From an uncultured Phycisphaerae bacterium (GTDB lineage: Bacteria; Planctomycetota; Phycisphaerae; Phycisphaerales; UBA1924), in NCBI GenBank assembly GCA_947085435.1, contig CAMTWL010000031.1:76278-140277 (forward strand): DNA of 64,000 bases, given 5' to 3'. The notes beneath the pieces are model-generated. The model made no database searches and was not told where the DNA came from. It worked only from the letters and a program-made list of their open reading frames with translations. Of this stretch, positions 956-55,032 are shown in pieces. The position numbers and the translations under genes are program-made. Each line of letters opens with the position of its first letter. Position 1 is the stretch's first letter.

Positions 956-1095
956 GCACCCTGTAAGGGTGCAAGTGAGGGCCGCTCCGCCGGGGTGAAC
1001 GGACTCGGAACGCGCCCGCAGCATCGTGCGATTCACTGCGCAGTTAGCAATGGGATTTCGATTCGTAACGATCTTGCTGCACCCTTTCAGGGTGC
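956..1095. repeat. two GCACCCT-N4-AGGGTGC hairpins (family D); a third copy lies at about 14711
   Basis: gcaccctgtaagggtgc at 956-972 and gcaccctttcagggtgc at 1079-1095, read directly. Confidence 0.7.
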
Positions 1096-1120
1096 GGAAA
1101 GAGGGTGAATAGGTCAGTTT

Positions 1121-1187
1121 ACCGGCGGTTACGCTCGCAGACTCGCTAACCCCCGGCTACTAACTACCAGCCTTTCAGGCTGAAAAT
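1121..1187. repeat. family-B palindromic element copy (CCGGGGG...CAGCCTTTCAGGCTG core)
   Basis: ggttacgctcgcagactcgctaacccccggctactaactaccagcctttcaggctgaa matches copies at 14586, 25838, 28390, 29770, 34160, 45150 and 54845. Confidence 0.75.
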
Positions 1188-1197
1188 CCATGCACCC

Positions 1198-2979
1198 TCA
1201 CCTGAAAATCACCACCCGCGGCATCGCCAACAATACCGGCTCCTCACGCAACTGCAGCAGCGCCTGCATCGCGTCAGCGACCGCGTCCCACGCCTGCTCG
1301 CCCACCGCCGCGCGCAACGTCTCAACCGCTTCAACGCGAGGCGACGCCGCGCCGAACGGCAGCCCGTTCTCGAACATCTCCGCGAGCGTCATCGGTCCCG
1401 GATAATCCAGAACGTCGTACGAATCCTCCGGCAAACCCAGGCTCGCCGCCATGTCCACCACCGCATCGTCAAGCCCGCCGATCTCGTCGGCCATCTTGAG
1501 CGCGATCGCCTTGTCGCCCGTAAAAATCCGCCCCTCCGCCGTCTTCGACACATCGATCCCCTTCCGCCCCTTCGCCACGCGATCCACAAACTGGTCGTAG
1601 GTCCGCTTCATGCTCCGCGTGATCGCCCCGCGCTCCGCATCGGTCCACGGCGCCAGCCCGCTCATGATCCCGCCCAGCGGCCCGCGCGACCGAGGCACCG
1701 CATGAATGTGCAACTTCTCGTACAAACCGCCCAACGCCAGTTTTCCGCCGACCACGCCGATCGAACCCACGATCGACGACGGGTTCACATAGATCTTGTC
1801 GCCCGCCACCGCGATGTAATACCCGCCGCTCGCGGCCATGCTGCCCACGCTCACCCACACCGGCTTCTTTGTCTTTTCCGCGAGGCGGCGCAGCCCCACC
1901 CAGATGTTCTCGCTGGCGATCGCGCTCCCGCCCGGCGAGTTGACGCGCACGATCACGCCCTTCACAAAGTCGTCGTCCTCGATCTTCTTAAGTTGCTCGC
2001 GGATCGTCAGCGAGCCCACCGTCGCCCCGCCCAGGAAGGAGCCGTTGGACGACTTGCCGTCCATGATCGGCCCGTCGATATGCACCACCGCGATGGTGTC
2101 GCGCACCGTGCCGCCGCTCATGTCCTCGACGGCTTTCATGATCTCGGCGAAGGCCTCGAAGAGCCCCATCCGCGCGAAGTCCGGCTCGTCGCCGCCCGCG
2201 CCCAACCCGAGGTTCCACTTGAAATCCGCCCCGTACGCCGCCTTCAGATGATCGTCGAGGCTCAGCCGATCAACCTCCGCGTCAGCGATCTTGAACTTCA
2301 CCGCATCGCCCGGCTCCATGTACAACCCTTCGCTCATCGCCGCGTCGAGTTGCTGATCGTTGAGCCCGCGCCCCTCTTTGATGTGCGCACGCACATGCTC
2401 GTACATGCTGTCGAGCAACTGGTTCACGTTCTGGTCCCACTCGGGCGAGGGGGCGCTGTTGGCGAACATCTCCTTCGCCCCCTTGTAGTCGCCGATCTGC
2501 ACGAAGTCGGGAGTCACCCCCACCCACTTCAGCATGTCCGCGAGGAACATCTCCTCCATGTACACGCCGGTGAGGATCACCGCGCCGCCGGATTGCACGA
2601 TCACCTCGTCCGCGTACGAACCGAGCACGACGGTCGATTGGTCGTAGATCTCGGTGAAGAGATGGACCTTCTTCCCCGCCGCCCGGATGCGCTTGAACGC
2701 CGCGCCGATCTCCTCGACACGCGACAGCGAAAGTTTCGGCTCGACCAGCCGCACCACCACGCCGCTCATCTCCGGGTCCGCCGCCACGCCGTTCAACGTC
2801 CCGATCAGCCCGCGCAGGGTCAACTTGTCCGGCTTGGCGAAGAGGAACGGCGCCATCACCTCCCGCTCGGGAAGTTCCCCCTCGAGTTTGAGGTACCCCA
2901 CCGTCCGCGCGGCCGTCGCCGTGGACGCGATCATTACACAAACAAGAACGCTCATCGCACGTCGGGCAACGGTATTCAT
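1198..2979 (-). CDS. sppA: signal peptide peptidase SppA (protease IV, 67K type)
   Basis: 593 aa with a signal peptide and duplicated ClpP/crotonase-like S49 domains (the GSMAASGGYYIA motif). GGAGAA SD before ATG at 2979. Confidence 0.85.
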   Translation of the reverse strand: MNTVARRAMSVLVCVMIASTATAARTVGYLKLEGELPEREVMAPFLFAKPDKLTLRGLIGTLNGVAADPEMSGVVVRLVEPKLSLSRVEEIGAAFKRIRAAGKKVHLFTEIYDQSTVVLGSYADEVIVQSGGAVILTGVYMEEMFLADMLKWVGVTPDFVQIGDYKGAKEMFANSAPSPEWDQNVNQLLDSMYEHVRAHIKEGRGLNDQQLDAAMSEGLYMEPGDAVKFKIADAEVDRLSLDDHLKAAYGADFKWNLGLGAGGDEPDFARMGLFEAFAEIMKAVEDMSGGTVRDTIAVVHIDGPIMDGKSSNGSFLGGATVGSLTIREQLKKIEDDDFVKGVIVRVNSPGGSAIASENIWVGLRRLAEKTKKPVWVSVGSMAASGGYYIAVAGDKIYVNPSSIVGSIGVVGGKLALGGLYEKLHIHAVPRSRGPLGGIMSGLAPWTDAERGAITRSMKRTYDQFVDRVAKGRKGIDVSKTAEGRIFTGDKAIALKMADEIGGLDDAVVDMAASLGLPEDSYDVLDYPGPMTLAEMFENGLPFGAASPRVEAVETLRAAVGEQAWDAVADAMQALLQLREEPVLLAMPRVVIFR

Positions 2980-3204
2980 GGAACGATTCTCCGCGGGTGT
3001 GTGAGGCTGGGGGTCGGTGGGGACAGCACCGCCATCTTATTCCGGTTTGAGTGCCGGTGGTTTCGGCGCGATTCTCGCCAAGCGATCTCGCTGGAGCCGA
3101 CTCGGGAGTTGACGCTTTGAGGAGGGGTCAACCCTTATTGACCCATCCCGTGTCCCGTTGACACGAACCCGTCCAGGCTGCAACTGCCCGGACCAAGGAG
3201 TGTC

Positions 3205-3486: not shown

Positions 3487-3954
3487 CTATTTCTTGACGC
3501 GATCCTGTTGGTGCGCTTCGACTTGCACTCGGACCTGCGTGAACTGGATCGTCGCCCCGCGCCCGATGCCCTCGCACTGACGCGAGAGTTTCTGCCAGGC
3601 GCGCGGCGATTCGAGATGCTCCGGCCAAAACGGGAACGTGCGGCACTGCGTCGGCCTGAGATCGTGGATGGAGCAGAGTGCCTTGCCCGGTTGCGTGGCG
3701 CGGTCGAGGAAGATGCAGTCGTGGCCTTGCTCGGTCTCGATTTCCTTGAAAGAGCGCGATCGGCCGGCGACTTTCGTTTTCAGATCGACGGTGTAGCGTT
3801 CGAGGAACTCGGGCATGGCGCAGCCGAGGCGTGCCGCGATCTTCGTGGCTTCTTCGTCGGTGAAGAGGACGTAGCCCGGCGCGCCCGAGCAGCATTGGCC
3901 GCACTGGGTGCATTCGAAGCGGAGGCCGTCGGAGTACCAGGGGAGTGGGGGCAT
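3487..3954 (-). CDS. YkgJ-family cysteine-cluster (Fe-S/zinc) protein
   Basis: 155 aa with the CTQCGQCC (CxxCxxCC) motif typical of PF03692. ATG at 3954. Confidence 0.7.
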   Translation of the reverse strand: MPPLPWYSDGLRFECTQCGQCCSGAPGYVLFTDEEATKIAARLGCAMPEFLERYTVDLKTKVAGRSRSFKEIETEQGHDCIFLDRATQPGKALCSIHDLRPTQCRTFPFWPEHLESPRAWQKLSRQCEGIGRGATIQFTQVRVQVEAHQQDRVKK

Positions 3955-3960
3955 GGGTGA

Positions 3961-4040
3961 GCGGTGATGGGGTGATGGGGTGATGGGGTGATGGGGAATT
4001 CCATATCTCCCGATCACCCCATCATCCCATCATCCCATTC
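3961..4040. repeat. tandem octamer (GGGGTGAT)x4 followed by its imperfect inverted complement; G-quadruplex motif plus long hairpin
   Basis: gcggtgatggggtgatggggtgatggggtgatgggg ... cgatcaccccatcatcccatcatcccattc fills the whole 84-bp spacer between the PP2C stop (4039) and the ykgJ-like start (3954). Confidence 0.85.
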
Positions 4041-5936: not shown

Positions 5937-6102
5937 AGACAAAGACATTGAACACAGAGGAAGACAGAGGAAAACAGAGTAGGGAGGTCAGAAGAGCGAT
6001 TCACTGGGCTTGCATGTGGCACGTTGATCGCCCCCTGCGGTCGATCCTTCTTTTCAGTCTCTGTTTATCTTTGTTTTCCTCTGTGTTCAATGCCTTTTTC
6101 CT
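5937..6102. repeat. family-A long inverted repeat (CACAGAGG-type arms) forming an intergenic hairpin
   Basis: gacattgaacacagaggaagacagaggaaaacagag ... ctctgtttatctttgttttcctctgtgttcaatgcc, between the deaminase stop and the LOG start. Confidence 0.8.
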
Positions 6103-13236: not shown

Positions 13237-13280
13237 ACCCATCCTGCCTAAATACGCGGCAGCCCTAACTGAGAAAACCA

Positions 13281-14570
13281 ATGCCCTTCACCCTCAAACC
13301 CGACGAAGGCTTCGACGTTGATGTCGAATCCACCGACTACCTCAAGACCCACGTCGACACCGGCGACCGCTGGACGCTGAACTTCGGGCCGCAGCACCCG
13401 GCGACGCACACGACGCTGCGCATCGTGCTCGAGCTCGACGGCGAGCGGATCGCCCGCTGCACGCCGCACATCGGGTACCTGCACTCGGGGTTCGAGAAAC
13501 TCGCCGAGCACTTGGACTACAACCAGTATGTGACGATCGTGTCGCGCATGAACTATCTTTCGCCGATCGCCAACGATATCTGCTGGCACCACGCGGTGGA
13601 GACGCTGTTCGGGATCGACCTCACGCCGCGGTGCAAGGTGATCCGCACCATCATGGCGGAACTGGCGCGGATCCAGGACCACCTGTTGAGCGTGGGGGCG
13701 ACGGCGCTGGACCTCGGGGCGTTCACAGGGTTTTTGTACGGGTTCAACGCGCGGGAGCGGATCTACGACATCTGCGATTTCATTTCGGGGCAGCGTTTTC
13801 ACCCGGATTGGACACGCGTGGGCGGCGCGATGCAGGACCTCCCCGACGAGGAGACGTTCAAGAAGTTGGTGAGGTACTTCGTCAATGAGGACCTGCCGCG
13901 GGCGCTCGAGGATATTGAAGGGCTCCTCTGCCGCAACCGCATCTTCATCGACCGCACCGCGGGCATCGGCATCGTCTCAAAGGAAGACGCGATCGCGTGG
14001 TCGCTGTCGGGGCCGATGGCTCGCGGGTCGGGGGTTGTGCGCGATCTGCGGAAGGACGAGCCGTACCTCTGCTACGCGAACAACTGGGACGGCCAGGGAG
14101 CGAAAGCCGTCGAGTTCAAGGTGCCGGTCCACACCGACGGCGACGCCTACGCCCGCTTCCAGGTCCGCCTCGAGGAGATGAAGCAGTCGATCCACATCAT
14201 CCGCCAACTGATCGACAATATTCCGGGCGGGCCGATCGACACCTACGCCGACGGCAAGTACGTCAAGCCGCCGAAGTCCGACGTCTACGGCTCCATCGAA
14301 GGCCTGATCCAGCACTTCGAGATCATCATGAGCAACCGAGGCTGGAAGGCCCCGATCGCGGAGTGCTACGGCGCGAACGAGACCGCCAACGGCGAACTCG
14401 GGTTCTACATCGTGGCGGACGGTGGGCCGAGGCCGTGGCGCGTGCGGACGCGGCCGCCGAGTTTCATCAACTACTCGATCATGGCGAAACTCACCGAGGG
14501 TCACATGCTGGCGGACATCGTGGCGGTTTTGGGGTCGATTAATGTGGTGGCGGCGGAGTTGGATCGGTAG
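13281..14570 (+). CDS. nuoD: NADH-quinone oxidoreductase subunit D (49-kDa subunit)
   Basis: 429 aa, colinear with NuoD/Nqo4 (LNFGPQHPATHTTLRIVLELDGE ... RVRTRPPSFINY). No other nuo genes are adjacent. Confidence 0.9.
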   Translation: MPFTLKPDEGFDVDVESTDYLKTHVDTGDRWTLNFGPQHPATHTTLRIVLELDGERIARCTPHIGYLHSGFEKLAEHLDYNQYVTIVSRMNYLSPIANDICWHHAVETLFGIDLTPRCKVIRTIMAELARIQDHLLSVGATALDLGAFTGFLYGFNARERIYDICDFISGQRFHPDWTRVGGAMQDLPDEETFKKLVRYFVNEDLPRALEDIEGLLCRNRIFIDRTAGIGIVSKEDAIAWSLSGPMARGSGVVRDLRKDEPYLCYANNWDGQGAKAVEFKVPVHTDGDAYARFQVRLEEMKQSIHIIRQLIDNIPGGPIDTYADGKYVKPPKSDVYGSIEGLIQHFEIIMSNRGWKAPIAECYGANETANGELGFYIVADGGPRPWRVRTRPPSFINYSIMAKLTEGHMLADIVAVLGSINVVAAELDR

Positions 14571-14585
14571 GGGCTATTGATCTCT

Positions 14586-14700
14586 GCGCGGCCAAAGGCA
14601 CGCGCTCATGCCCACTGGTCTTCAGGCTGAAAGCCTGGTAGTTCGTAGCCGGGGGCAGAGCGAGGCTTTGGGAGCGCCGCCCCCGGAAAGAAGGCTCTTC
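14586..14700. repeat. family-B palindromic element copy
   Basis: cttcaggctgaaagcctggtagttcgtagccgggggcagagcgagg...cccccggaaag. Confidence 0.75.
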
Positions 14701-14716
14701 AACCATCTTGGCACCC

Positions 14717-14742
14717 TGCAAGTGTGCAAGTGTGCAAGTGTG
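14717..14742. repeat. tandem (GCAAGTGT)x3 adjacent to a GCACCCT hairpin half
   Basis: tgcaagtgtgcaagtgtgcaagtgtg, read directly. Confidence 0.8.
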
Positions 14743-25764: not shown

Positions 25765-25837
25765 GCGTGAGTGTCCCTATGTGAGTGAATGTGTTGATGC
25801 TTGGAAATGCCTTTCCCGGCGCGCCGGGATTCAGCCT

Positions 25838-25915
25838 GAAAGGCTGGTCGTTCGTAGCCGGGGGTTTAGCGAGTCTTCGAGCGTAACCCCCGGAAAGAGC
25901 CAAACCAACCCATCT
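25838..25915. repeat. family-B palindromic element copy
   Basis: ttcagcctgaaaggctggtcgttcgtagccgggggtttagcgagtcttcgagcgtaacccccggaaag. Confidence 0.75.
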
Positions 25916-25919
25916 TTTC

Positions 25920-27692
25920 CTATTTATTCCGCACGCTCCGGCCGCGCCTCTCTTCGATCGCGCGGATCGCGTCCGTGCTCTTCGGCACATACGGCGGATG
26001 CTCGCGACAGAAAAGCCTGACGAAACCTGTCGAGCCGGCTATGGGGGCTTCGAGCGAATCACCTCCGTCGAGAAGATGCCGCGGCGCGATAAGTTCTCGC
26101 GGGTCGGGGTTGAGGTTGATTCCTTCGGCTCGGTAAAGATTTTCGAGGTCGATAACACTGAAATCGAGGAGGTTTCCCGAGGCTTGATATCGACGGAGGA
26201 CTTCGAGCGAGGGTCTTTGCACGCAGCGCCCCCCGCCGCCGAGGATGTAGGGGAGGTCGTCGCCCGCGACGGCGCAATCGCAGGAGTCGTTCGAGTAGAG
26301 GACGCGGCCCGACTGACCCCATTGCGCGATCTCGCTGGACATCGGCATGCGGACGTAGTGGAGCGCGATGGAGTTTTGAGTCGGCGGATTGAGGCTGGGG
26401 AGCGCGAGGCGCGGGCCGCCGGCGATGGTGAGGGTGACGGTGGTGGTGGGCTGCGTGATGCTCGCGGCGGCGACGTAGACGCGATTCGGCAGGAGTTCGC
26501 AGTGGCGTGTGTCGGCGGCGGCGGTGAGTTTGCTGAAGAGGCCCGCGCCGATGAGCGAGAGGCCGACGATCTGGGCCGTTTGGTTGTCGGAGGATGCGGT
26601 GATGGCGCCGCCGAGGAGCATGGCGGTGCCGATGGAACTCTTGGCGGCGCGGAGGTCCTCGAAGTTGTTCCACATGTGATCCTGGGCGAGCGCGTTGAGG
26701 TCGGCGGCGACGGCGGAGGGGGAGGCGGAAGGCGGAGCCGAAGACACCGATTCCTTAAGGGAATCGGTGGCACGGGTTGGGGTGAATATTTCGAGGGTGA
26801 GTGGGCGTTGATTGTTTGCGAGGCGCGGGGCGAAGCGGGTGAGGGAGTTGTCGGGGCCGTAGCGGATCTTTTCGGGGCCGGGGCCGTAGTCGATGATGAA
26901 GACGGTGTTGGCCGAGTTGTTGAGGAGGGCGCTCGTGACCGGCGCGAGTGCTGGGATGAGCGTGTTGGCTTCGTTGAAGTTGTCTTGTGCTTCGTCGAGT
27001 CGTGCGGGGTCGCCTCCCGAGCGATGGAGCGCGAGGTTGGCGAGGCCGGACATGAAGTAGCCGAGGGCGAAGTTGGTTTTGGTGGGGGTGTAGCCCTTGT
27101 CGAGGTAGTCATCGAATGCGTCGTCGTTGTGCCGCGAACGCCCGACGGCGGTGCGGGCGATGTCTTCGGTGGTCTTGCGGCCGCCGCGCTCGTTCTCGCC
27201 GAAGTCTTTGAGGAGAAAGAGCGATGACTGTGCGGCGGCGCGTGCGTTGTCCCACTCGTTGAGGAGAGCCTTCTGCACCGCGATGTAGTGGAACATCATC
27301 GCCTGCTCGAAGGGCTCGCCTTTCCAGAAGATGACGTTGCCGTCGCCGAGGATCGCGGCGGCGATGGTCTTGTCGTCGTTGATGCCCTGGGTGCGGAGAA
27401 TCTCGAAGGTGCGGTTGATGATGGGTTCGGCGGCGGCGGGTCGGCCGTCGGCGAGGAGGGCGAGGCTGAGGCGCATGCGGTCGAGCATGTAGTCGCGGTT
27501 TGTGCGGTCCTCGGGGAGACGGGCGGCGATGCGCGAGGCGACGCGGGGGTATTCGCCGCGGTCGAAGAGGTCGCGGAGTGGGGTGTCGGTGGAGTGGGCG
27601 CAGGCTGTCAAGAGAAAGGCATTCACCGCAGAGACGCAGAGGACGCAGAGAAGGAATCGCTGGGATGAGTTGTTGTGAATCACTGCACCCAT
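25920..27692 (-). CDS. large lipoprotein of unknown function (COG3014-like neighbour of LpoB/YcfL)
   Basis: The ORF runs to 27707 (GTG). The likely ATG at 27692 gives MGAVIHNNSSQRFLLCVLCVSAVNAFLLTAC, a lipoprotein signal peptide whose coding sequence is a family-A repeat arm. Confidence 0.6.
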   Translation of the reverse strand: MGAVIHNNSSQRFLLCVLCVSAVNAFLLTACAHSTDTPLRDLFDRGEYPRVASRIAARLPEDRTNRDYMLDRMRLSLALLADGRPAAAEPIINRTFEILRTQGINDDKTIAAAILGDGNVIFWKGEPFEQAMMFHYIAVQKALLNEWDNARAAAQSSLFLLKDFGENERGGRKTTEDIARTAVGRSRHNDDAFDDYLDKGYTPTKTNFALGYFMSGLANLALHRSGGDPARLDEAQDNFNEANTLIPALAPVTSALLNNSANTVFIIDYGPGPEKIRYGPDNSLTRFAPRLANNQRPLTLEIFTPTRATDSLKESVSSAPPSASPSAVAADLNALAQDHMWNNFEDLRAAKSSIGTAMLLGGAITASSDNQTAQIVGLSLIGAGLFSKLTAAADTRHCELLPNRVYVAAASITQPTTTVTLTIAGGPRLALPSLNPPTQNSIALHYVRMPMSSEIAQWGQSGRVLYSNDSCDCAVAGDDLPYILGGGGRCVQRPSLEVLRRYQASGNLLDFSVIDLENLYRAEGINLNPDPRELIAPRHLLDGGDSLEAPIAGSTGFVRLFCREHPPYVPKSTDAIRAIEERRGRSVRNK

Positions 27693-27761: not shown

Positions 27762-28343
27762 TCAGTTGTAGGAACGCCCCGCGGCGGTGCGTTTCAGGAG
27801 GTATTCGCCGGTCCAGACGGTTTCACCGGATTCAAGAGCGGTGATGGAGTAGTGGGCGGCGTAGAGGTCGGTGCGATCGAGGGCGAACGAGCGGGTGATG
27901 TTGCGGAAAACCGCGGCGAGGACGTGGGTGGGCTTTCGTTCCTCGCCGATCGTGCGCTCGAAGCCGATGGCTTCCTTGAGGTTTTCCAGGCGTTCAGCCG
28001 GAACGATGAACCGGATGCGTCGCTCCCCGGCGAGGTCGCGGAGGTGGAACGAGTGGGTGATGCGGTCGATGAGGTACCACCGCTCGCCTTTGGTCATGAG
28101 GTCGCTCGTCAGATTCGTCGGCTCCCGCGAGGTGAGGAGAATCTCGGGAGATTCCGGGGTGCGCCCACTCAGGAAGTCCGACTCGCGCAGCGACGCGGCG
28201 ATCTCAACGACGATCGACTCGAAGTCGAGCGTCTGCAGTTGCGTGCTCCGCGAAGGATGGTTGCAGCCCGTCAGAAAAAAGGCATTCACCACGGAGACAC
28301 CGAGGCACAGAGAAGAGAGAAAGGTGTGGGTGGCGTGGGACAT
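27762..28343 (-). CDS. LpoB-like lipoprotein (candidate penicillin-binding-protein activator)
   Basis: 193 aa. MSHATHTFLSSLCLGVSVVNAFFLTGC lipobox signal. The C-terminal YSITALESGETVWTGEY resembles LpoB's LMLVQTGEIIWSGKG. The first 27 codons are a family-A repeat arm (28262-28343). Confidence 0.5.
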   Translation of the reverse strand: MSHATHTFLSSLCLGVSVVNAFFLTGCNHPSRSTQLQTLDFESIVVEIAASLRESDFLSGRTPESPEILLTSREPTNLTSDLMTKGERWYLIDRITHSFHLRDLAGERRIRFIVPAERLENLKEAIGFERTIGEERKPTHVLAAVFRNITRSFALDRTDLYAAHYSITALESGETVWTGEYLLKRTAAGRSYN

Positions 28344-28389: not shown

Positions 28390-28560
28390 CACGCGGAGCG
28401 TGGCACCCCTTGTATGTTCTTCGGGGTTCGGAAGAGGGTATAGGGGTATAGGGGGGGTTGGTTCCGGGGGTTACGCTTGGTTGCCGCGGCGACCGCTCAC
28501 CCCCGGCTACTGACTGCCAGCTCGTACACGGCGAGTCGAGGCGACCCTCCGGGCTTGAAA
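28390..28560. repeat. family-B element copy with a GTCGCCGCGGCGAC core
   Basis: ccccttgtatgttcttcggggttcggaagagggta...ggttccgggggttacgcttggttgccgcggcgaccgctcacccccggctactgactgccagc. Confidence 0.7.
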
Positions 28561-28612: not shown

Positions 28613-30412
28613 TCATTTTTCTTCGCTCTTCCTGTTCCAGACTGCGCCGCACGCCAGGATCGCCATCCCGGCAAAGCAGGTCCAGCCTACTCCGTTGCCG
28701 AACCTGGCATAGATCGTCATTCGGCGGGGTTGAACGTCGAAATCCGCGATGAGGACGCCGGGTTGCCTTGCCGGCAGGCTGGAAATCACCCGGCCGTCGG
28801 CGTCGATGGCGGCGCTGAGGCCGGTGTTGACGGCCCGGAGCATGGGGGTGCCGAGTTCCAGCGCCCGCCAGCGGCATTGGAGGACGAGGTTGTCGCGCCC
28901 GGCGTCGTACCACGCGAACCAGCCGTCGTTGGAGAGGTTGATGAAGAGGTCGGCCCGGCGCTCGCCGTTATTTTGCGCGAGGCGGCGCATGTGGCGGGAA
29001 TAGGTTGACTCGAAGCAGATGGGGGTGGCGATGCGGACGGTCTTTGGTGGGCCGGTCGCCGCGGCGACCGGGTCTGATTGGATTTCAAGGACCGTCGGAT
29101 TTTTTCCCGCTTCAAGATCGAACGTCAATCCGCGTCCGCCGAGCGCGAGGAGCTGCCTCTCCAGCCAATCCCAGTTGGAGATATAGGGCATGACCTCGCC
29201 GAAGGGCATGAGTTGCATCTTGTCGTAGCGTGTCTCTTCGACGACGCCGTTGCGGACCATGAAGGCGCTGTTGTAGAGGGCGTCCTGCTTGATGTTCACC
29301 TTGCCGTCCGGCGCAACGTCGATCCTTAGCCCCTCGGCGGCCGTCGCGCCGACGAGCATGGGGATGCCGATCTCTTTCTGGAGTTCGAGGATCGCGTCGT
29401 AGAAGACGGTGGTTGGGATGTTGCCGGGGTATGCGAGGCTGGCGGCGCGTTCGGCGGCGACGGCGCTGGGGTTGAGGGCGTAGCCGGGGAACATGGTTTC
29501 GGGCCAGACGATGAGGGACGGCTTCGGCGCTTGCTCGGCGGCCTCGCGGGTGAGGTTGCAGAAGTCGCGGAAGTCTTCGAGGCGCTGGTCGATTGTTTGG
29601 CTCGTGCGGTTGTCTTGAGATACGTTGGTTTGGATTGCGGTGATGCGGAGCGCGGGTGCATGGGCGACGGTGGGTGAAGTGCCGCGTGGGAAGAGGAACG
29701 CAAAGAGTGCGGTGAGGCACGCCGTCGCATATAGGATTCGGCGCACCGGTGCGATTGTCCGTGGCTGCGGAGCACCCCTTCGGGGTGCTGAAGAGGTTTG
29801 GGGGGACAGGTTTCCGGGGGTTACGCTCGAAGACTCGCTAGACCCCCGGCTACTGTAGATCAGCCCTTCGGGCTGAAGAAGGCGATGCGGGATGGAGGCC
29901 GTCACCACGGCGTTGACCAGAAGCCCAACGCCATAGATGCCAACAACCGGCGCGGCCCACGCGATCATCCGATCGATCAGCGGATGCGCGATCAGATACT
30001 GCGCATACCCATCCCACACCACTTCGCCGCGCAGCACTTCGAGTCCCGTCCAAAGAACCGGCGCGGCGAGGTACAGCGGCAGCCTCGGCGATCGGCGGTG
30101 GACGCGCGCCAGCATCCACACGAAGAGGCCGGGGTACAGCGCGAGGTAGAGGGAGAGCGGGACGAACGCGGCTTCGGTCATGGCCCAGGTGAACTGGTGG
30201 TGATACGCCCACATGGGGACGGTGCCGAGGGCCGCGCCGAGGGCGGCGCGGGCCGGTCGGTCAGCCCGGACGGCGGCGAGGATCAGCGGGATCGGCGCGA
30301 GGAGTGCGAGGAACCACCATCCGAAGGGTGGGAAGGCGAGGCCGAAGAGGACACCGTGGATGAGTCCGAGAAGCAAGCCGGCGCGGAGGGGATGGCGTTT
30401 GGTATCCGTCAC
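28613..30412 (-). CDS. lnt: apolipoprotein N-acyltransferase Lnt, carrying an in-frame repeat-element insertion
   Basis: 599 aa. N-terminal polytopic membrane domain, CN-hydrolase domain (E..K..C triad region: PETMFPGY...KMQLMPFGE...ATPICFES) and a final TM. A roughly 38-aa linker (LQPEGLIYSSRGSSESSSVTPGNLSPQTSSAPRRGAPQ) is encoded by the family-B element. Confidence 0.85.
   Translation of the reverse strand: MTDTKRHPLRAGLLLGLIHGVLFGLAFPPFGWWFLALLAPIPLILAAVRADRPARAALGAALGTVPMWAYHHQFTWAMTEAAFVPLSLYLALYPGLFVWMLARVHRRSPRLPLYLAAPVLWTGLEVLRGEVVWDGYAQYLIAHPLIDRMIAWAAPVVGIYGVGLLVNAVVTASIPHRLLQPEGLIYSSRGSSESSSVTPGNLSPQTSSAPRRGAPQPRTIAPVRRILYATACLTALFAFLFPRGTSPTVAHAPALRITAIQTNVSQDNRTSQTIDQRLEDFRDFCNLTREAAEQAPKPSLIVWPETMFPGYALNPSAVAAERAASLAYPGNIPTTVFYDAILELQKEIGIPMLVGATAAEGLRIDVAPDGKVNIKQDALYNSAFMVRNGVVEETRYDKMQLMPFGEVMPYISNWDWLERQLLALGGRGLTFDLEAGKNPTVLEIQSDPVAAATGPPKTVRIATPICFESTYSRHMRRLAQNNGERRADLFINLSNDGWFAWYDAGRDNLVLQCRWRALELGTPMLRAVNTGLSAAIDADGRVISSLPARQPGVLIADFDVQPRRMTIYARFGNGVGWTCFAGMAILACGAVWNRKSEEK
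29770..29885. mobile_element. family-B MITE-like element inserted in-frame within lnt
   Basis: ccttcggggtgctgaagaggtttggggggacaggtttccgggggttacgctcgaagactcgctagacccccggctactgtagatcagcccttcgggctgaag is a near-identical copy of the intergenic elements. It lies between the Lnt membrane and nitrilase domains and has no stop codon. Confidence 0.75.
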
Positions 30413-31045
30413 GGTGCGAGTCTAATGCGGATCGTCGGCGAAATTGGGAGGTGATGAGTGGACGCGGCAGGGGGCGTAGCACTGGCGGATCCCGGCGCGC
30501 CGGGACCAGTGGCACCTAACGCCGTGAACTGAATCATCCGCTTTCGTGCGATTCGCGTGCCCCGCTGGGGCACAAAAGACTGAAAATGCAGCCATTTCCA
30601 GACCCGCGCCGAAGACGGCGGGGTCTGGCAACACGCGCCCGCCGCGTTGCGGCGAAAACACCGAAAAATCCAGTGTCTTCGTGATGTTCTCGTTTGTTCG
30701 AGTTCACGGCGTTGGTTGGCACCTGAAATCCGACACTTCGCCCGGAGCGGCTCAGTGTCGACTTCTCAAATGTCAGGCGGTTTCCCTACCCAAACCCACA
30801 TTATCCGGACTATTTCTGACCTTTCTTCGCTTTTTGCCGATTTTACTTGCCTGAATCATGGTTCTGAGGCATGTTTGAGCGGTGAATGTCAGTGATCGGC
30901 TCGATTTTTCTGCCGTGGCGCGCCGGTTTGTGTCGGTTGCGTCGCTGACCCCTGCGGGAGTATCGGCTGTGCCCAGTGTCCCCTGGGCGGTCAGGTTCAA
31001 CGGCCGACAGAGTTTGAGAGTGAATCACCCAAGGAGTTTCGAGAA

Positions 31046-32113
31046 ATGAAGCGTAGTTTCAAGGCCGTCATCGCCGGCGCGTTCGCGGGTCTCGTGATCG
31101 CGGCGTCCGCATCCGCGCAACTTGTTCCCCTCCCGCTCGTCACCTGGAAGTACCAGCAGCCCTGGACCAAACCGTGGCACGCGTTCGTCTCCATCGTGCG
31201 TGACTGCCAAGGCAATCCCATGCAGTTCCCGGCCGGCGTGGCCCCCATCGCCGCCGACGACTGGATTTGCACGGCTTCCGGCCCCATCGTCCGCATCCAG
31301 TGGTGGGGCGTCTCGCCCCAGCCCTTGCAGACTCCCAATCGTCAGTTCCTCATCCGCATCTTCACTGACGCGAACTGCCGCCCGGCAAACCTCGTGTACT
31401 CGACCTGCGTCCTCGCCACGAACCAGTATGTGAACATCGATTGCCGTCAGCGCAGGGTGCATCGGTTCAGCGCGAACCTCCCGACCGGAGCGTTGGGCTT
31501 CAGCCAGGTCGCGGGCACGCACTACTGGCTCTCGATCGCCGAGGTTGACGGCGTCGCGGGCGCGATCCAGAGCCCGACGCTCAACGCAGTGGACTTCATG
31601 TGGTCCGCGCACCGGAACACGAAGAACTGCCCGGCTTTGCAGCGTCTCCCCGGCCCCGTGTTCATCCAGCCGCTCCTCGACGCCTGCGACCAACTCGAGG
31701 AAGACCTCTCCTTCGTGCTCTACCGCAGCGCGATCATCGTCAATGTGCCCAACAATCCCGCGGGCCTGATCGGCCTGCCGCGCCCGGTCTATGTCGCCGA
31801 GTTCCGCAAGCAGGGCGACCCGAACACCATCGAACACGTCGAGTGCTTCACCCCGGATAGCGACGGCTCCGCGAGCCTCCATCCCGAACTCGCCCCCGGC
31901 ATGTACCAGGTCGCGATCCGCGGCGGGTCGCGCCGCACCTCGTTCTTTGACATCTTTGTCGAAGTTTCCCTGCCCGGCGCTGCCGGCGGCGGCGGCGCGG
32001 CCGACTACTTCATCGACCTCGGCAACGTGGCCGGCCCCCCCGGCGACGTGGACGGCGACGGCGACACCGACTTCGCCGATCTCACCGGCGTCCTCGCCAA
32101 CTGGCGCCCGTAA
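31046..32113 (+). CDS. secreted protein of unknown function with a C-terminal dockerin-like tag (paralog A)
   Basis: 355 aa. AAGGAG SD and a signal peptide ending ASASAQ. C-terminus GDVDGDGDTDFADLTGVLANWRP (dockerin/EF-hand-like Ca-binding repeat). Confidence 0.7.
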   Translation: MKRSFKAVIAGAFAGLVIAASASAQLVPLPLVTWKYQQPWTKPWHAFVSIVRDCQGNPMQFPAGVAPIAADDWICTASGPIVRIQWWGVSPQPLQTPNRQFLIRIFTDANCRPANLVYSTCVLATNQYVNIDCRQRRVHRFSANLPTGALGFSQVAGTHYWLSIAEVDGVAGAIQSPTLNAVDFMWSAHRNTKNCPALQRLPGPVFIQPLLDACDQLEEDLSFVLYRSAIIVNVPNNPAGLIGLPRPVYVAEFRKQGDPNTIEHVECFTPDSDGSASLHPELAPGMYQVAIRGGSRRTSFFDIFVEVSLPGAAGGGGAADYFIDLGNVAGPPGDVDGDGDTDFADLTGVLANWRP

Positions 32114-33409: not shown

Positions 33410-33538
33410 GTAACTCTTCAGCCCCCTGCGATGACCGGTGCCGGCAGCGCGGGCGCGATCGGCGCTTCGCCCGGAGGGCGCTCGCAACGAACGCGCGCCC
33501 AAGGGGCGAAAAGGCGTTGCAGACGGCTGAAGAGTTAC
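33410..33538. mobile_element. short MITE (129 bp) with 15-bp TIRs GTAACTCTTCAGCNN.../...GCTGAAGAGTTAC and a 7/8 target-site duplication
   Basis: TIRs read directly. Flanks are gctttttc | ... | gcttcttc. Inserted immediately after the terminator T-run. Confidence 0.75.
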
Positions 33539-34030: not shown

Positions 34031-34056
34031 CGGAGCAGGGCAACCAAGGGATTTCG

Positions 34057-34294
34057 TATCTCTTCAGCGGAATGCAACGGCTTCCAAGCCTTCCCCAAAC
34101 GGAAGCGTGTTTCTTGTTCCGATCGCGTGGCGCCCCTTCGGGGTTCGGAAGAGGGTTAGTGGGGTTGCTTTCCGGGGGTGTCGAATCCCGGCGCGCCGGG
34201 ACACCCCCGGCTACTCTAGACCAGCCCTTCGGGCTGAAGATCAATTCATCTCAACACAATACGAACCTCCGCTTGCAAACGGCTGAAGAGTCAC
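34057..34294. mobile_element. full-length MITE (about 238 bp): TIRs GTATCTCTTCAGCGG / CGGCTGAAGAGTCAC enclosing the family-B core; 7/8 TSD
   Basis: Flanks gggatttc | ... | ggcatttc. The internal sequence is colinear with the copies at 45058 and 54811. Confidence 0.75.
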
Positions 34295-43606: not shown

Positions 43607-43734
43607 GTTGACGTGGCACGGGCTTTCCAGCCCGTGTCTTCGGTGGTACGGGCTTTCTCGGAGAGTCGCCGCGGCGACCGTGACGCGGGGGACACGGGCT
43701 AGAAAGCCCGTGCCACATTCAAACTGAGACACCA
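43607..43734. repeat. family-C element flanked by 14-bp direct repeats CACAACTTTGAGTG
   Basis: Direct repeats at 43593-43606 and 43735-43748. The internal sequence is gtggcacgggctttccagcccgtg...gagagtcgccgcggcgaccg...gtgccacattcaaactgagacac. Confidence 0.8.
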
Positions 43735-44172: not shown

Positions 44173-44256
44173 ACGGTGTGTGCGCGAGCCCCTTCTCGCG
44201 AGCGATCCGCATCGAAGGTTGCGCGCTGCTCACTCGAATCATCCTCGGAGCATTTG

Positions 44257-45027
44257 ATGAAAGCCAAGGGCAGGCTGACAGCGATCATCGTTGGCATATG
44301 CGTGGTCGGAGCGGTTTATTACTTTCTCCGCGGACGAGCGGCCGTGCCCTCCCCCGTTGCGCACGCTCCGACACCGGGCGTCGAAACACATCTTCTCGGT
44401 TCCGCCAACATCATCGAGCCGTACGATGAGCAGGAGGTTCCCGACCTCGTTTTGCAGTTCCGAGTCTCCTGCCTCGCGTCCTGCCGAGACCTGATCGGCG
44501 AGGCTCGGCTCGACAGCGCTTCGATGGAATCCTTCTGCGACGCCGCTTCGGAACGCCTCCGTCTGTATCTGGCCCCTTCCTATGATGCCTACCGAGAGTA
44601 TGTCAAGCGCCTGACGGGGCGCGATCCGGAAGGCTCGGGCGCGACGAATATCTTCTCCAAGCGGGGGGACTTCGAGGGGATGACGAGCGGCATGAGGCTG
44701 CTGCCGTTCGACCCCGCGAGCGTTCATGTCCGGGCGGTCTTCATCGGAGGCCGCTCCGTCGCTCCGCTGACCGCCGACGCGTCGTACACCCCTGATTCCG
44801 GCCTTTTTTTCAGCGCCGTCGGTCAGGAGCCCAAGAAGGCCCGGGCCACGATCTATGAAGTTCTCGTTCCGGTGGAAGCACGCGATCCGTTCCATCCCGA
44901 CACTCGGTTTTCACTCGTCCTCGGCATGGCCTTTGTCCGCGAGTTGGACGGGCGGTGGAAGCCATGGCAGATGTCGTTCCACGATCCGAGCGGCGTGAAG
45001 CGGATCACTGGTTCGCCCTGGCTGTGA
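44257..45027 (+). CDS. N-terminally membrane-anchored hypothetical protein
   Basis: 256 aa from ATG 44257. LTAIIVGICVVGAVYYFL single TM. No family. Confidence 0.45.
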   Translation: MKAKGRLTAIIVGICVVGAVYYFLRGRAAVPSPVAHAPTPGVETHLLGSANIIEPYDEQEVPDLVLQFRVSCLASCRDLIGEARLDSASMESFCDAASERLRLYLAPSYDAYREYVKRLTGRDPEGSGATNIFSKRGDFEGMTSGMRLLPFDPASVHVRAVFIGGRSVAPLTADASYTPDSGLFFSAVGQEPKKARATIYEVLVPVEARDPFHPDTRFSLVLGMAFVRELDGRWKPWQMSFHDPSGVKRITGSPWL

Positions 45028-45057
45028 CCGGAGGGGATCATGAAGCACGCGCTCCCT

Positions 45058-45301
45058 GTAACTCTTCAGCGGAATGCAACGACCGTTTCTCCAAACGGGC
45101 CTGTGGTGTTTGGTTCCGATCGAGTGGCACCCCTTCGGGGTTCGGAAGAGGGTGCGTGGGGTTGCTTTCCGGGGGTGTCGCGGACTCCACCCCCGGCTAC
45201 TGTAGACCAGCCCTTCGGGCTGAAAACAAAGGCATTTCAAGAGCGCACGAACCTCGGGTCGCCGCAGCGACTCGTAGATTTGCAACCGGCTGAAGAGTTA
45301 C
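45058..45301. mobile_element. full-length MITE (244 bp, TIR GTAACTCTTCAGCGG...CCGGCTGAAGAGTTAC)
   Basis: Colinear with 34057-34294, and inverted relative to the copy at 54811-55032. Flanks cgctccct | ... | ctctccct (7/8 TSD). Confidence 0.8.
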
Positions 45302-45309
45302 CTCTCCCT

Positions 45310-46231
<922 letters not shown>

Positions 46232-48131: not shown

Positions 48132-48188
48132 GGTGGAGCAGGCATCTCGAAGAGTCGCCGCGGAGACTCTTCGAGATGCCTGCACCAC
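48132..48188. repeat. near-perfect 57-bp palindrome (family-C core)
   Basis: ggtggagcaggcatctcgaagagtcgccgcggagactcttcgagatgcctgcaccac. Confidence 0.85.
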
Positions 48189-54810: not shown

Positions 54811-55032
54811 GTAACTCTTCAGCCGTTTGCAAACCGAGGTTCGTGCTCTATTGAAATGCCTTTGTTTTCAGCCCGAAGGGCTGGTCGTTCGTAGCCGGGG
54901 GTGGAGTCCGCGACACCCCCGGAAAGCAACCCCACGCACCCTCTTCCGAACCCGAAGGGGTGCCATGTGATCGGAACGAGTTACTACGGGCCCGTTTGGA
55001 GAAGAGGTCTTTGCATTCCGCTGAAGAGTTAC
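54811..55032. mobile_element. MITE copy (222 bp) with a perfect 8-bp target-site duplication CGATCCTT
   Basis: ...ttcgatcctt|GTAACTCTTCAGCCG...CGCTGAAGAGTTAC|cgatccttcaacg. Inverted orientation relative to 45058-45301. Confidence 0.85.

Follow-up and report, generated by a model that had tools for sequence, protein, structure and literature searches.

A REP-like three-hairpin repeat, probably a tolerated passenger, in frame in the lnt gene of an uncultured Phycisphaerae bacterium

We analysed a 64,000-nucleotide stretch of contig CAMTWL010000031.1 (the window), assembled from an uncultured Phycisphaerae bacterium, in which a protein-coding gene at 28613-30412 on the minus strand contains a copy of a dispersed palindromic repeat. 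The gene is lnt, which encodes apolipoprotein N-acyltransferase (Lnt), an integral-membrane enzyme that E. coli and most other well-studied Gram-negative bacteria cannot do without. As the original prediction from the sequence had described, the open reading frame (ORF) is continuous over 599 amino acids and includes the unusual peptide that had drawn attention to it; it is single and intact and begins with GTG. Pfam searches assigned residues 20-169 of the product to LNT_N and residues 286-561 to CN_hydrolase, and the protein also matched solved Lnt sequences in PDB. Its closest relatives are 71, 68 and 65% identical, and the homologues with a named source come from metagenome-assembled genomes (MAGs) of Phycisphaerae or Planctomycetota. 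We aligned the window Lnt with 22 close homologues (23 sequences) and with 107 homologues (108 sequences). In the larger alignment every invariant Lnt residue is kept in the lnt product, and the E-K-C triad (E305, K398 and C466) falls in invariant columns.

The repeat copy occupies 29772-29879 of the plus strand, antisense to lnt, and comprises 108 nt read in frame as 36 codons. Local alignments to other copies all placed its start at 29772, apart from two partial ones that began at 29778 and 29811, and the full-length ones ended at 29877-29879, giving an insert of 106-108 nt; an nhmmer profile made from the copies matched at 29763-29884 (E 9e-34). The insert encodes Lnt residues ~179-214, a Ser/Pro/Gly/Arg-rich segment (LQPEGLIYSSRGSSESSSVTPGNLSPQTSSAPRRGA), and the peptide quoted in the original prediction corresponds to residues 179-216. 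Just one of the six frames across the copy is stop-free, and it is identical with the lnt frame; over the eight copies in the window, 13 of 48 frames (~27%) are open. The insert retains a non-coding composition, with GC contents by codon position of 0.58/0.68/0.61 versus 0.65/0.48/0.82 in the remainder of lnt, and the coding signature is normal on both sides of it (GC at third positions, GC3, 0.83 each). All three hairpins of this copy are perfectly intact, and the 122-nt stretch around them has a predicted folding energy of ~ -50 kcal/mol on either strand.

A comparison with orthologues, suggested at the outset as a check on the insertion, was clear: the segment is confined to the window Lnt and is lacking in 107 of 107 homologues. 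Between the flanking motifs IPHRL and APVRR the window protein has a loop of 42 residues, versus 0-18 (median 7) in the homologues, and subtraction of 36 residues leaves 6. A search of a 5.8-billion-protein database with a 45-aa peptide spanning the insert for other translated copies yielded zero candidates, a negative that carries no weight because the query is too short or of too low complexity for the word index. We then located the segment in an AlphaFold model of the window Lnt built on the 108-sequence alignment (predicted local distance difference test score, pLDDT, 91.5; predicted template-modelling score, pTM, 0.91), for which the top Foldseek matches were the Lnt structures of E. coli (E 3e-24) and P. 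aeruginosa. The longest low-confidence stretch of the model is ~181-220 (means of 10-residue blocks 69, 56, 51 and 67); the C-terminal tail is likewise of low confidence. The order along the chain is helix 149-172, the insert, helix 222-240, the first nitrilase strand at 255 and a last helix at 574-591. The model thus agrees with the expectation that the insert forms a loop, here between helices 149-172 and 222-240, and disagrees with its placement as a linker exactly at the junction of the membrane block and the periplasmic domain, since transmembrane (TM) helix 222-240 intervenes before the nitrilase domain.

Published Lnt topology has eight TM helices, both termini in the cytoplasm and a periplasmic domain bridging H7 and H8 (PMC5500888); read against it, the model of the window Lnt agrees both in its eight TM helices and in the place of the periplasmic domain, between H7 and H8. 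Because the termini are cytoplasmic and the periplasmic domain bridges H7 and H8, the H6-H7 loop must face the cytoplasm. The insert is accordingly placed by the model in the cytoplasmic H6-H7 turn, which it would enlarge on the membrane face opposite the active site, and its residues are probably disordered. A short, length-variable loop across the membrane from the active site is a position that argues for a functional enzyme, and we regard Lnt as most likely active.

Similarity searches within the window established the insert as one member of a family. A blastn search with the lnt region recovered seven further copies at the predicted positions (E 7e-4 to 1e-19), and the nhmmer profile gave exactly eight strong matches (E 1e-19 to 3e-34). 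With identities of 69-88% to the lnt copy, the others are more diverged than the term 'near-identical' used in the prediction had implied. The invariant 11-mer CCCCCGGCTAC occurs 8 times in the window, versus 0.03 expected from shuffled sequence. On a crude GC3-based gene map, seven of the eight copies fall outside genes, no copy is placed between divergent genes and their orientation relative to neighbouring genes is mixed, which is the distribution of a dispersed repeat rather than that of a cis-regulator.

The unit has three hairpins in a fixed order: GCACCCC-TTC-GGGGTGC; CCGGGGGT..ACCCCCGG followed by CTAC; and CAGCCC-TTC-GGGCTG. The palindrome of hairpin 2 and its CTAC are invariant in 8 of 8 window copies, and the reverse complement reads as GTAG plus the palindrome. 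We scanned one genome per species for the pattern TTCCGGGGG-N10-36-CCCCCGGCTAC and obtained more than 117 loci; the titles of those retained (L004-L120) name Planctomycetota, Verrucomicrobiota, Lentisphaerota, Acidobacteriota, Hydrogenedentota and Sumerlaeota, that is, at least six phyla. Of the 117 loci, 96 were matched by the profile made from the window copies, usually over the three hairpins; as this cross-genome sample was chosen by the hairpin 2 motif, the invariance of hairpin 2 in it is an artefact of the search pattern. Covariation across 50 copies supported the fold, with 93% of cells paired (30-52% in slid controls), 59 compensatory cells in which both sides had changed (versus 14 in shuffles) and such two-sided changes at 4 of the 7 pairs of hairpin 1 and 5 of the 6 pairs of hairpin 3. 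Wobble pairs were of no use for assigning the strand: it was the loop-closing pairs that made A-C/C-A cells outnumber G-T cells, so that structure in RNA and in single-stranded DNA is not separable by this measure. In many copies at L004-L120, hairpins 1 and 3 have the same sequence (CTGGCACCCCTTCAGGGTG), and tandem three-hairpin copies also occur (for example, at 3685-3780 and 3806-3903 of L038). We surveyed 137 profile matches from the window and the 117 loci for in-frame copies, asking for an ORF of at least 80 codons and coding GC on both sides; the lnt copy was the only intragenic one (1 of 137).

Three window copies lie inside longer units bounded by 13-bp terminal inverted repeats (TIRs; GTAACTCTTCAGC...GCTGAAGAGTTAC), and flanked by 8-bp duplications, one of which matches at 8/8 positions and the other two at 7/8 (Table 1). 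A metagenome scan for this IS66-type TIR yielded at least 120 loci, and a DDE_Tnp_IS66-type transposase was present in 60 of 120; at L157, the TIRs bound a 1566-bp insertion sequence (IS; 68-1633) with a single ORF that contains DDE_Tnp_IS66 plus zf-IS66. [quoted passage not shown] Many contigs at L121-L200 (for example, many Ga0307432 contigs) stop 100-125 nt into the IS66 element, just past the TIR, which points to an IS present in several copies, at which short-read assembly breaks off.

The description of the family as MITE-like therefore holds for the three long copies, with their IS66-type TIRs and 8-bp duplications, and not for the lnt copy, which is the bare 108-nt three-hairpin core. 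In size and number the lnt copy resembles a MITE (108 nt, non-coding, 8 copies in 64 kb); as a strict MITE it was rejected, being without TIRs. No IS66-type TIR was found within 160 nt of it and no direct repeat was evident at its junctions. TIRs are equally absent from four other window copies and from 129 of 129 copies in other genomes, and because this leaves 5 of 8 window copies and all of those elsewhere without TIRs, the core would seem to spread without them. These observations bear on an alternative that we hold to be unlikely, in which the lnt copy is the remnant of a full IS66-mobilized MITE (~244 bp plus an 8-bp duplication) that later lost its arms and TIRs. Such an origin would fit the 3 of 8 window copies in which the same core sits inside a MITE, the match between the window TIRs and those of the IS66-family IS at L157, and the arithmetic of the complete insertion (244+8 = 252 bp, or 84 codons, a multiple of three). 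It would also need two precise in-frame deletions, and the lnt flanks hold no TIR remnant (the best flanking inverted repeat scores 8, versus a maximum of 10 in shuffled controls), while the copies that lack TIRs elsewhere indicate a core that spreads alone.

We consider it very improbable that lnt is dead, a decaying pseudogene left open by luck, or that the repeat is a MAG assembly error. The source does appear to be a contig assembled from a metagenome, the identical protein is a single NCBI record with its nearest relative at 71%, and open frames are common enough in the element for an ORF to survive about 1 in 11 random insertions (one third for length multiplied by the ~27% of frames that are open). 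However, the two parts of lnt stand on either side of the repeat in the right order and frame, each with the same coding GC3; no invariant residue has been lost; confidence in the model is high for the whole protein apart from the insert; typical reads are longer than a 108-nt repeat; and a chimera would not rebuild the same gene. Since only about 1 in 11 random insertions would preserve the frame, the surviving event probably reflects selection against disruptive insertions, on the assumption that lnt is essential here.

Also very unlikely, in our estimation, is co-option of the insert, either as mRNA hairpins or an antisense RNA that regulates lnt or as a functional new cytoplasmic loop. The perfect hairpins of the lnt copy and their strong predicted folding on either strand could be read in this way, as could the same-orientation copy 67 nt beyond the lnt stop codon and the annotation of an Rfam relative (below) as a small RNA (sRNA). 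Against this, the insert is unique among the 107 homologues, its composition is not coding-like and its peptide is of low confidence in the model; neither the insert nor its borders gave a promoter-like or terminator-like site; and the family offers a single intragenic copy among the 137 surveyed and mixed orientations to neighbouring genes. That the segment is instead an ancestral, lineage-specific Lnt linker, with the intergenic copies derived from it or alike by chance, has its open reading frame and nothing else in its favour and is effectively refuted by the 107 homologues without it, by the eight window copies and more than 100 in other phyla that share its hairpins with compensatory changes, and by the chance expectation of 0.03 per window for the core 11-mer.

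It is therefore highly probable that a copy of a repeat resembling repetitive extragenic palindromic (REP) elements sits in frame in the H6-H7 loop of lnt, in an enzyme that is most likely functional and that tolerates it as a passenger. A three-hairpin copy would have inserted, antisense, into the codons of the short cytoplasmic H6-H7 loop; the gene would have stayed open as a result of the 108-nt length and of the coincidence of the sole stop-free frame with that of lnt; and Lnt would have gained ~36 residues in a short, length-variable loop far from the periplasmic active site. Activity would then have been kept, the insert being a neutral passenger rather than an adaptation. The GTAG-tagged palindrome hints at an insertion route through the handling of single-stranded hairpins by a HUH/Y1 enzyme of the REP-associated tyrosine transposase (RAYT) type. 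If a 36-residue insertion is accepted there, the H6-H7 loop of Lnt would be a permissive site for tags and engineering.

Several observations weigh against this reading. The loop of the nearest relatives is 13 residues long and unrelated in sequence to the 6 residues that remain when the insert is subtracted, and a DNA alignment with the three closest lnt loci (L001-L003) defined no empty site, the loop being too diverged; a simple insertion fits these data, and an insertion plus a deletion may account for them as well. The 69-88% identity to other window copies fixes neither the donor nor the age of the event, and a junction-specific 27-mer of the insert had no match in metagenome contigs. 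As this survey covers a 64-kb window, a second lnt may lie elsewhere in the genome. With regard to the proposed mobilization route, no Y1/HUH (RAYT) or IS66 transposase was detected in the 64-kb window, where RAYTs were sought by tblastn using an E. coli YafM sequence and a Y1_Tnp protein from L058. Clustering of ORFs, all against all, around the 117 element loci likewise revealed no recurrent transposase, only kinases, oxidoreductases and secretion ATPases.

The Y1_Tnp protein just mentioned (347 aa, IS200-like) is encoded at 1321-2364 on the minus strand of L058, a Verrucomicrobia MAG contig that also carries a three-hairpin unit. Its C terminus has a weak match to the DnaA helix-turn-helix (21.5 bits; Pfam cut-off 31.5), and a truncated second copy of that C terminus lies at 362-511. 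We rejected this gene as a cognate RAYT: it is near the element, but the unit does not flank it.

A second in-frame copy had been proposed at 45040-45310, preceding a DUF1559 gene. The ORF at 45040-46074 exists and reads through the 45-kb element, yet the DUF1559 identity was not borne out: a Pfam search gave no DUF1559 match for this ORF, and its only match was N_methyl at residues 98-118. In type IV pilin-like proteins, the N-terminal methylation motif comes after a short leader. Because N_methyl must sit near the N terminus and is found here at residues 98-118, the element (45058-45301) most likely lies upstream of the point where a pilin-like gene really starts and the ORF extension is most likely an artefact; a candidate TTG start is at 45310, with the MITE ending at 45301, 8 nt before it. 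This case agrees with a published warning that N-terminal 'intragenic' REPs are often start-codon artefacts (PMC3733652). The ORF upstream of the pilin-like gene (44176-45027) had no match in a Pfam search.

Upstream of lnt, the neighbouring gene at 30896-32113 encodes a DUF7901 protein (Pfam E 1e-11), and the ORF directly downstream (27762-28343) gave no match in a Pfam search. In the relatives L002 and L003, an overlapping HEAT-repeat gene comes after lnt instead of a repeat copy. The window also holds other long hairpins or palindromes, at 43611-43718, 3966-4039, 5945-6094 and 48137-48184, with sub-threshold matches to microRNA-precursor models, which at 43611-43718 and 3966-4039 occur on both strands; these are probably further palindromic repeat families.

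Table 1 Coordinates of repeat copies, hairpins and mobile-element features (window positions unless a locus is named)
Feature	Position	Strand	Details
Hairpin 1 of lnt copy	29771-29789	+	AGCACCCC-TTC-GGGGTGCT
Hairpin 2 of lnt copy	29814-29853	+	CCGGGGGT ... ACCCCCGG, then CTAC tag
Hairpin 3 of lnt copy	29860-29876	+	TCAGCCC-TTC-GGGCTGA
Predicted tryptic peptides of lnt product			LLQPEGLIYSSR, GSSESSSVTPGNLSPQTSSAPR
Repeat copy	1068-1197	+	Intergenic, without TIRs; abuts stop codon of minus-strand gene 1198-3036
Repeat copy	14607-14736	-	Intergenic, without TIRs; downstream of gene 13269-14570
Repeat copy	25818-25951	-	Intergenic; hairpin 1 degenerate
Repeat copy	28418-28546	+	67 nt past lnt stop codon; oriented as lnt copy; hairpin 3 diverged
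Repeat core in IS66-type MITE	34119-34253	+	nhmmer
Repeat core in IS66-type MITE	45115-45239	+	nhmmer
Repeat core in IS66-type MITE	54852-54975	-	nhmmer
Putative IS66-type MITE with core	34056-34294	+	TIR GTATCTCTTCAGC/GCTGAAGAGTCAC; flanks GGGATTTC, GGCATTTC
Putative IS66-type MITE with core, 244 bp	45058-45301	+	13-bp TIR; 8-bp flanks CGCTCCCT, CTCTCCCT
Putative IS66-type MITE with core	54811-55032	-	Perfect 8-bp duplication AAGGATCG
Putative coreless MITE, 129 bp	33410-33538	+	Same TIRs, different interior; flanks GCTTTTTC, GCTTCTTC
RF01687 unit in MITE	L133 1071-1115		Single unit, short contig
RF01687 inverted pair in MITE	L156 440-484 and 619-664
RF01687 inverted pair in MITE	L163 931-976 and 1072-1117
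RF01687 inverted pair in MITE	L171 253-297 and 432-476		Weaker unit 33.7, below gathering 37
RF01687 inverted pair in MITE	L178 779-824 and 959-1003

Comparison with known families points first to an Rfam entry. At the gathering threshold, the window copies had no Rfam match; in E-value mode, they scored 30.8, 30.0, 25.2 and 23.9 bits against RF01687, Acido-Lenti-1 (gathering 37), with a 30-bit match at 45169-45222. Weinberg et al. 2010 (PMC2864571) reported 89 representatives of Acido-Lenti-1, from Acidobacteria and Lentisphaerae, and described the motif as a probable sRNA; in Rfam, too, it is entered as the gene of an sRNA rather than as a mobile repeat. Hairpins 2 and 3 of the window copies align over the full length of model positions 1-46, hairpin 2 with the first RF01687 hairpin plus GGCUA and hairpin 3 with the second, and both families share the succession of a hairpin, GGCUA(C), a 7-9-nt linker and a CCUUCGG-type hairpin. 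RF01687 has several copies per genome in its acidobacterial and lentisphaeral hosts, and the window unit is likewise multi-copy. Unlike RF01687, the window copies have a longer loop in the first of these hairpins and an extra 5' hairpin, and they score 24-31 bits; we take the unit to be a distant relative of Acido-Lenti-1. Metagenome MITEs with the same IS66 TIR (L133, L156, L163, L171 and L178; Table 1) contain RF01687 units at 37-55 bits; in the four with inverted pairs (L156, L163, L171 and L178), at least one unit per pair exceeds the gathering score of 37, and the L156 MITE has a perfect 8-bp duplication. No IS66-type TIR was found in the Weinberg seed alignment with its flanks, so the MITE link of Acido-Lenti-1 is not universal. 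The 'sRNA' of Rfam thus appears to be, at least sometimes, a module of mobile elements, and its occurrence as a dispersed repeat, also within IS66-type MITEs, suggests that the labelling of the family as sRNA deserves another look.

A second point of reference is the GTAG-tagged REPs, GC-rich palindromes with an unpaired GTAG at one end (Di Nocera et al. 2013, PMC3733652). The window unit resembles them in its GC-rich palindrome with GTAG/CTAC, its many copies and their mostly extragenic location. GTAG-REPs sit between unidirectional or convergent genes, and in the window, too, no copy lies between divergent ones. In contrast to the single GTAG-REP of 20-40 bp, the window unit is a fixed mosaic of three hairpins and ~108 nt, and no RAYT is linked to it. 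In-frame REPs are occasional, encoding 20-30 aa, with a maximum of 43-82 aa for clusters, and intragenic or in-frame REPs have been catalogued outside Rickettsia, including in Opitutus terrae, a member of the Planctomycetes-Verrucomicrobia-Chlamydiae (PVC) group, in which GTAG-REPs are known from Planctomycetes as well (PMC3733652).

The likeness to Rickettsia palindromic elements (RPEs) drawn in the original prediction proved apt, in that a dispersed palindromic repeat lies in frame in lnt and the orthologues lack the segment. The first report on R. conorii gave 44 copies in ten families, nearly half of them in ORFs (PMC10969869). By published summaries of Ogata et al. 2000 (PMC10969869, PMC3733652), RPEs and the lnt insert have in common a short palindromic repeat in frame in a housekeeping gene, translated as an additional surface or loop segment with the fold kept, and other copies that are intergenic. 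Unlike RPEs, with nearly half in ORFs according to that report, the present family has a single intragenic copy among the 8 in the window and the 137 surveyed, and its host is a Phycisphaerae MAG. The occurrence in a different phylum stands, although it is less new than had been proposed, given the in-frame REPs already catalogued beyond Rickettsia. It is possible, if somewhat doubtful, that the unit is a self-contained mobile module distributed over the PVC group, Acidobacteriota, Hydrogenedentota and Sumerlaeota, with Acido-Lenti-1 as its core, that travels solo or as IS66-MITE cargo and occasionally adds loops to essential proteins such as Lnt; if so, it would be a cross-phylum counterpart of the process known from Rickettsia RPEs. 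The lnt case itself is a fresh example of a known phenomenon, as several phyla already have REP and RPE insertions in frame on record, and with it a Phycisphaerae example joins the short list of translated palindromic repeats.

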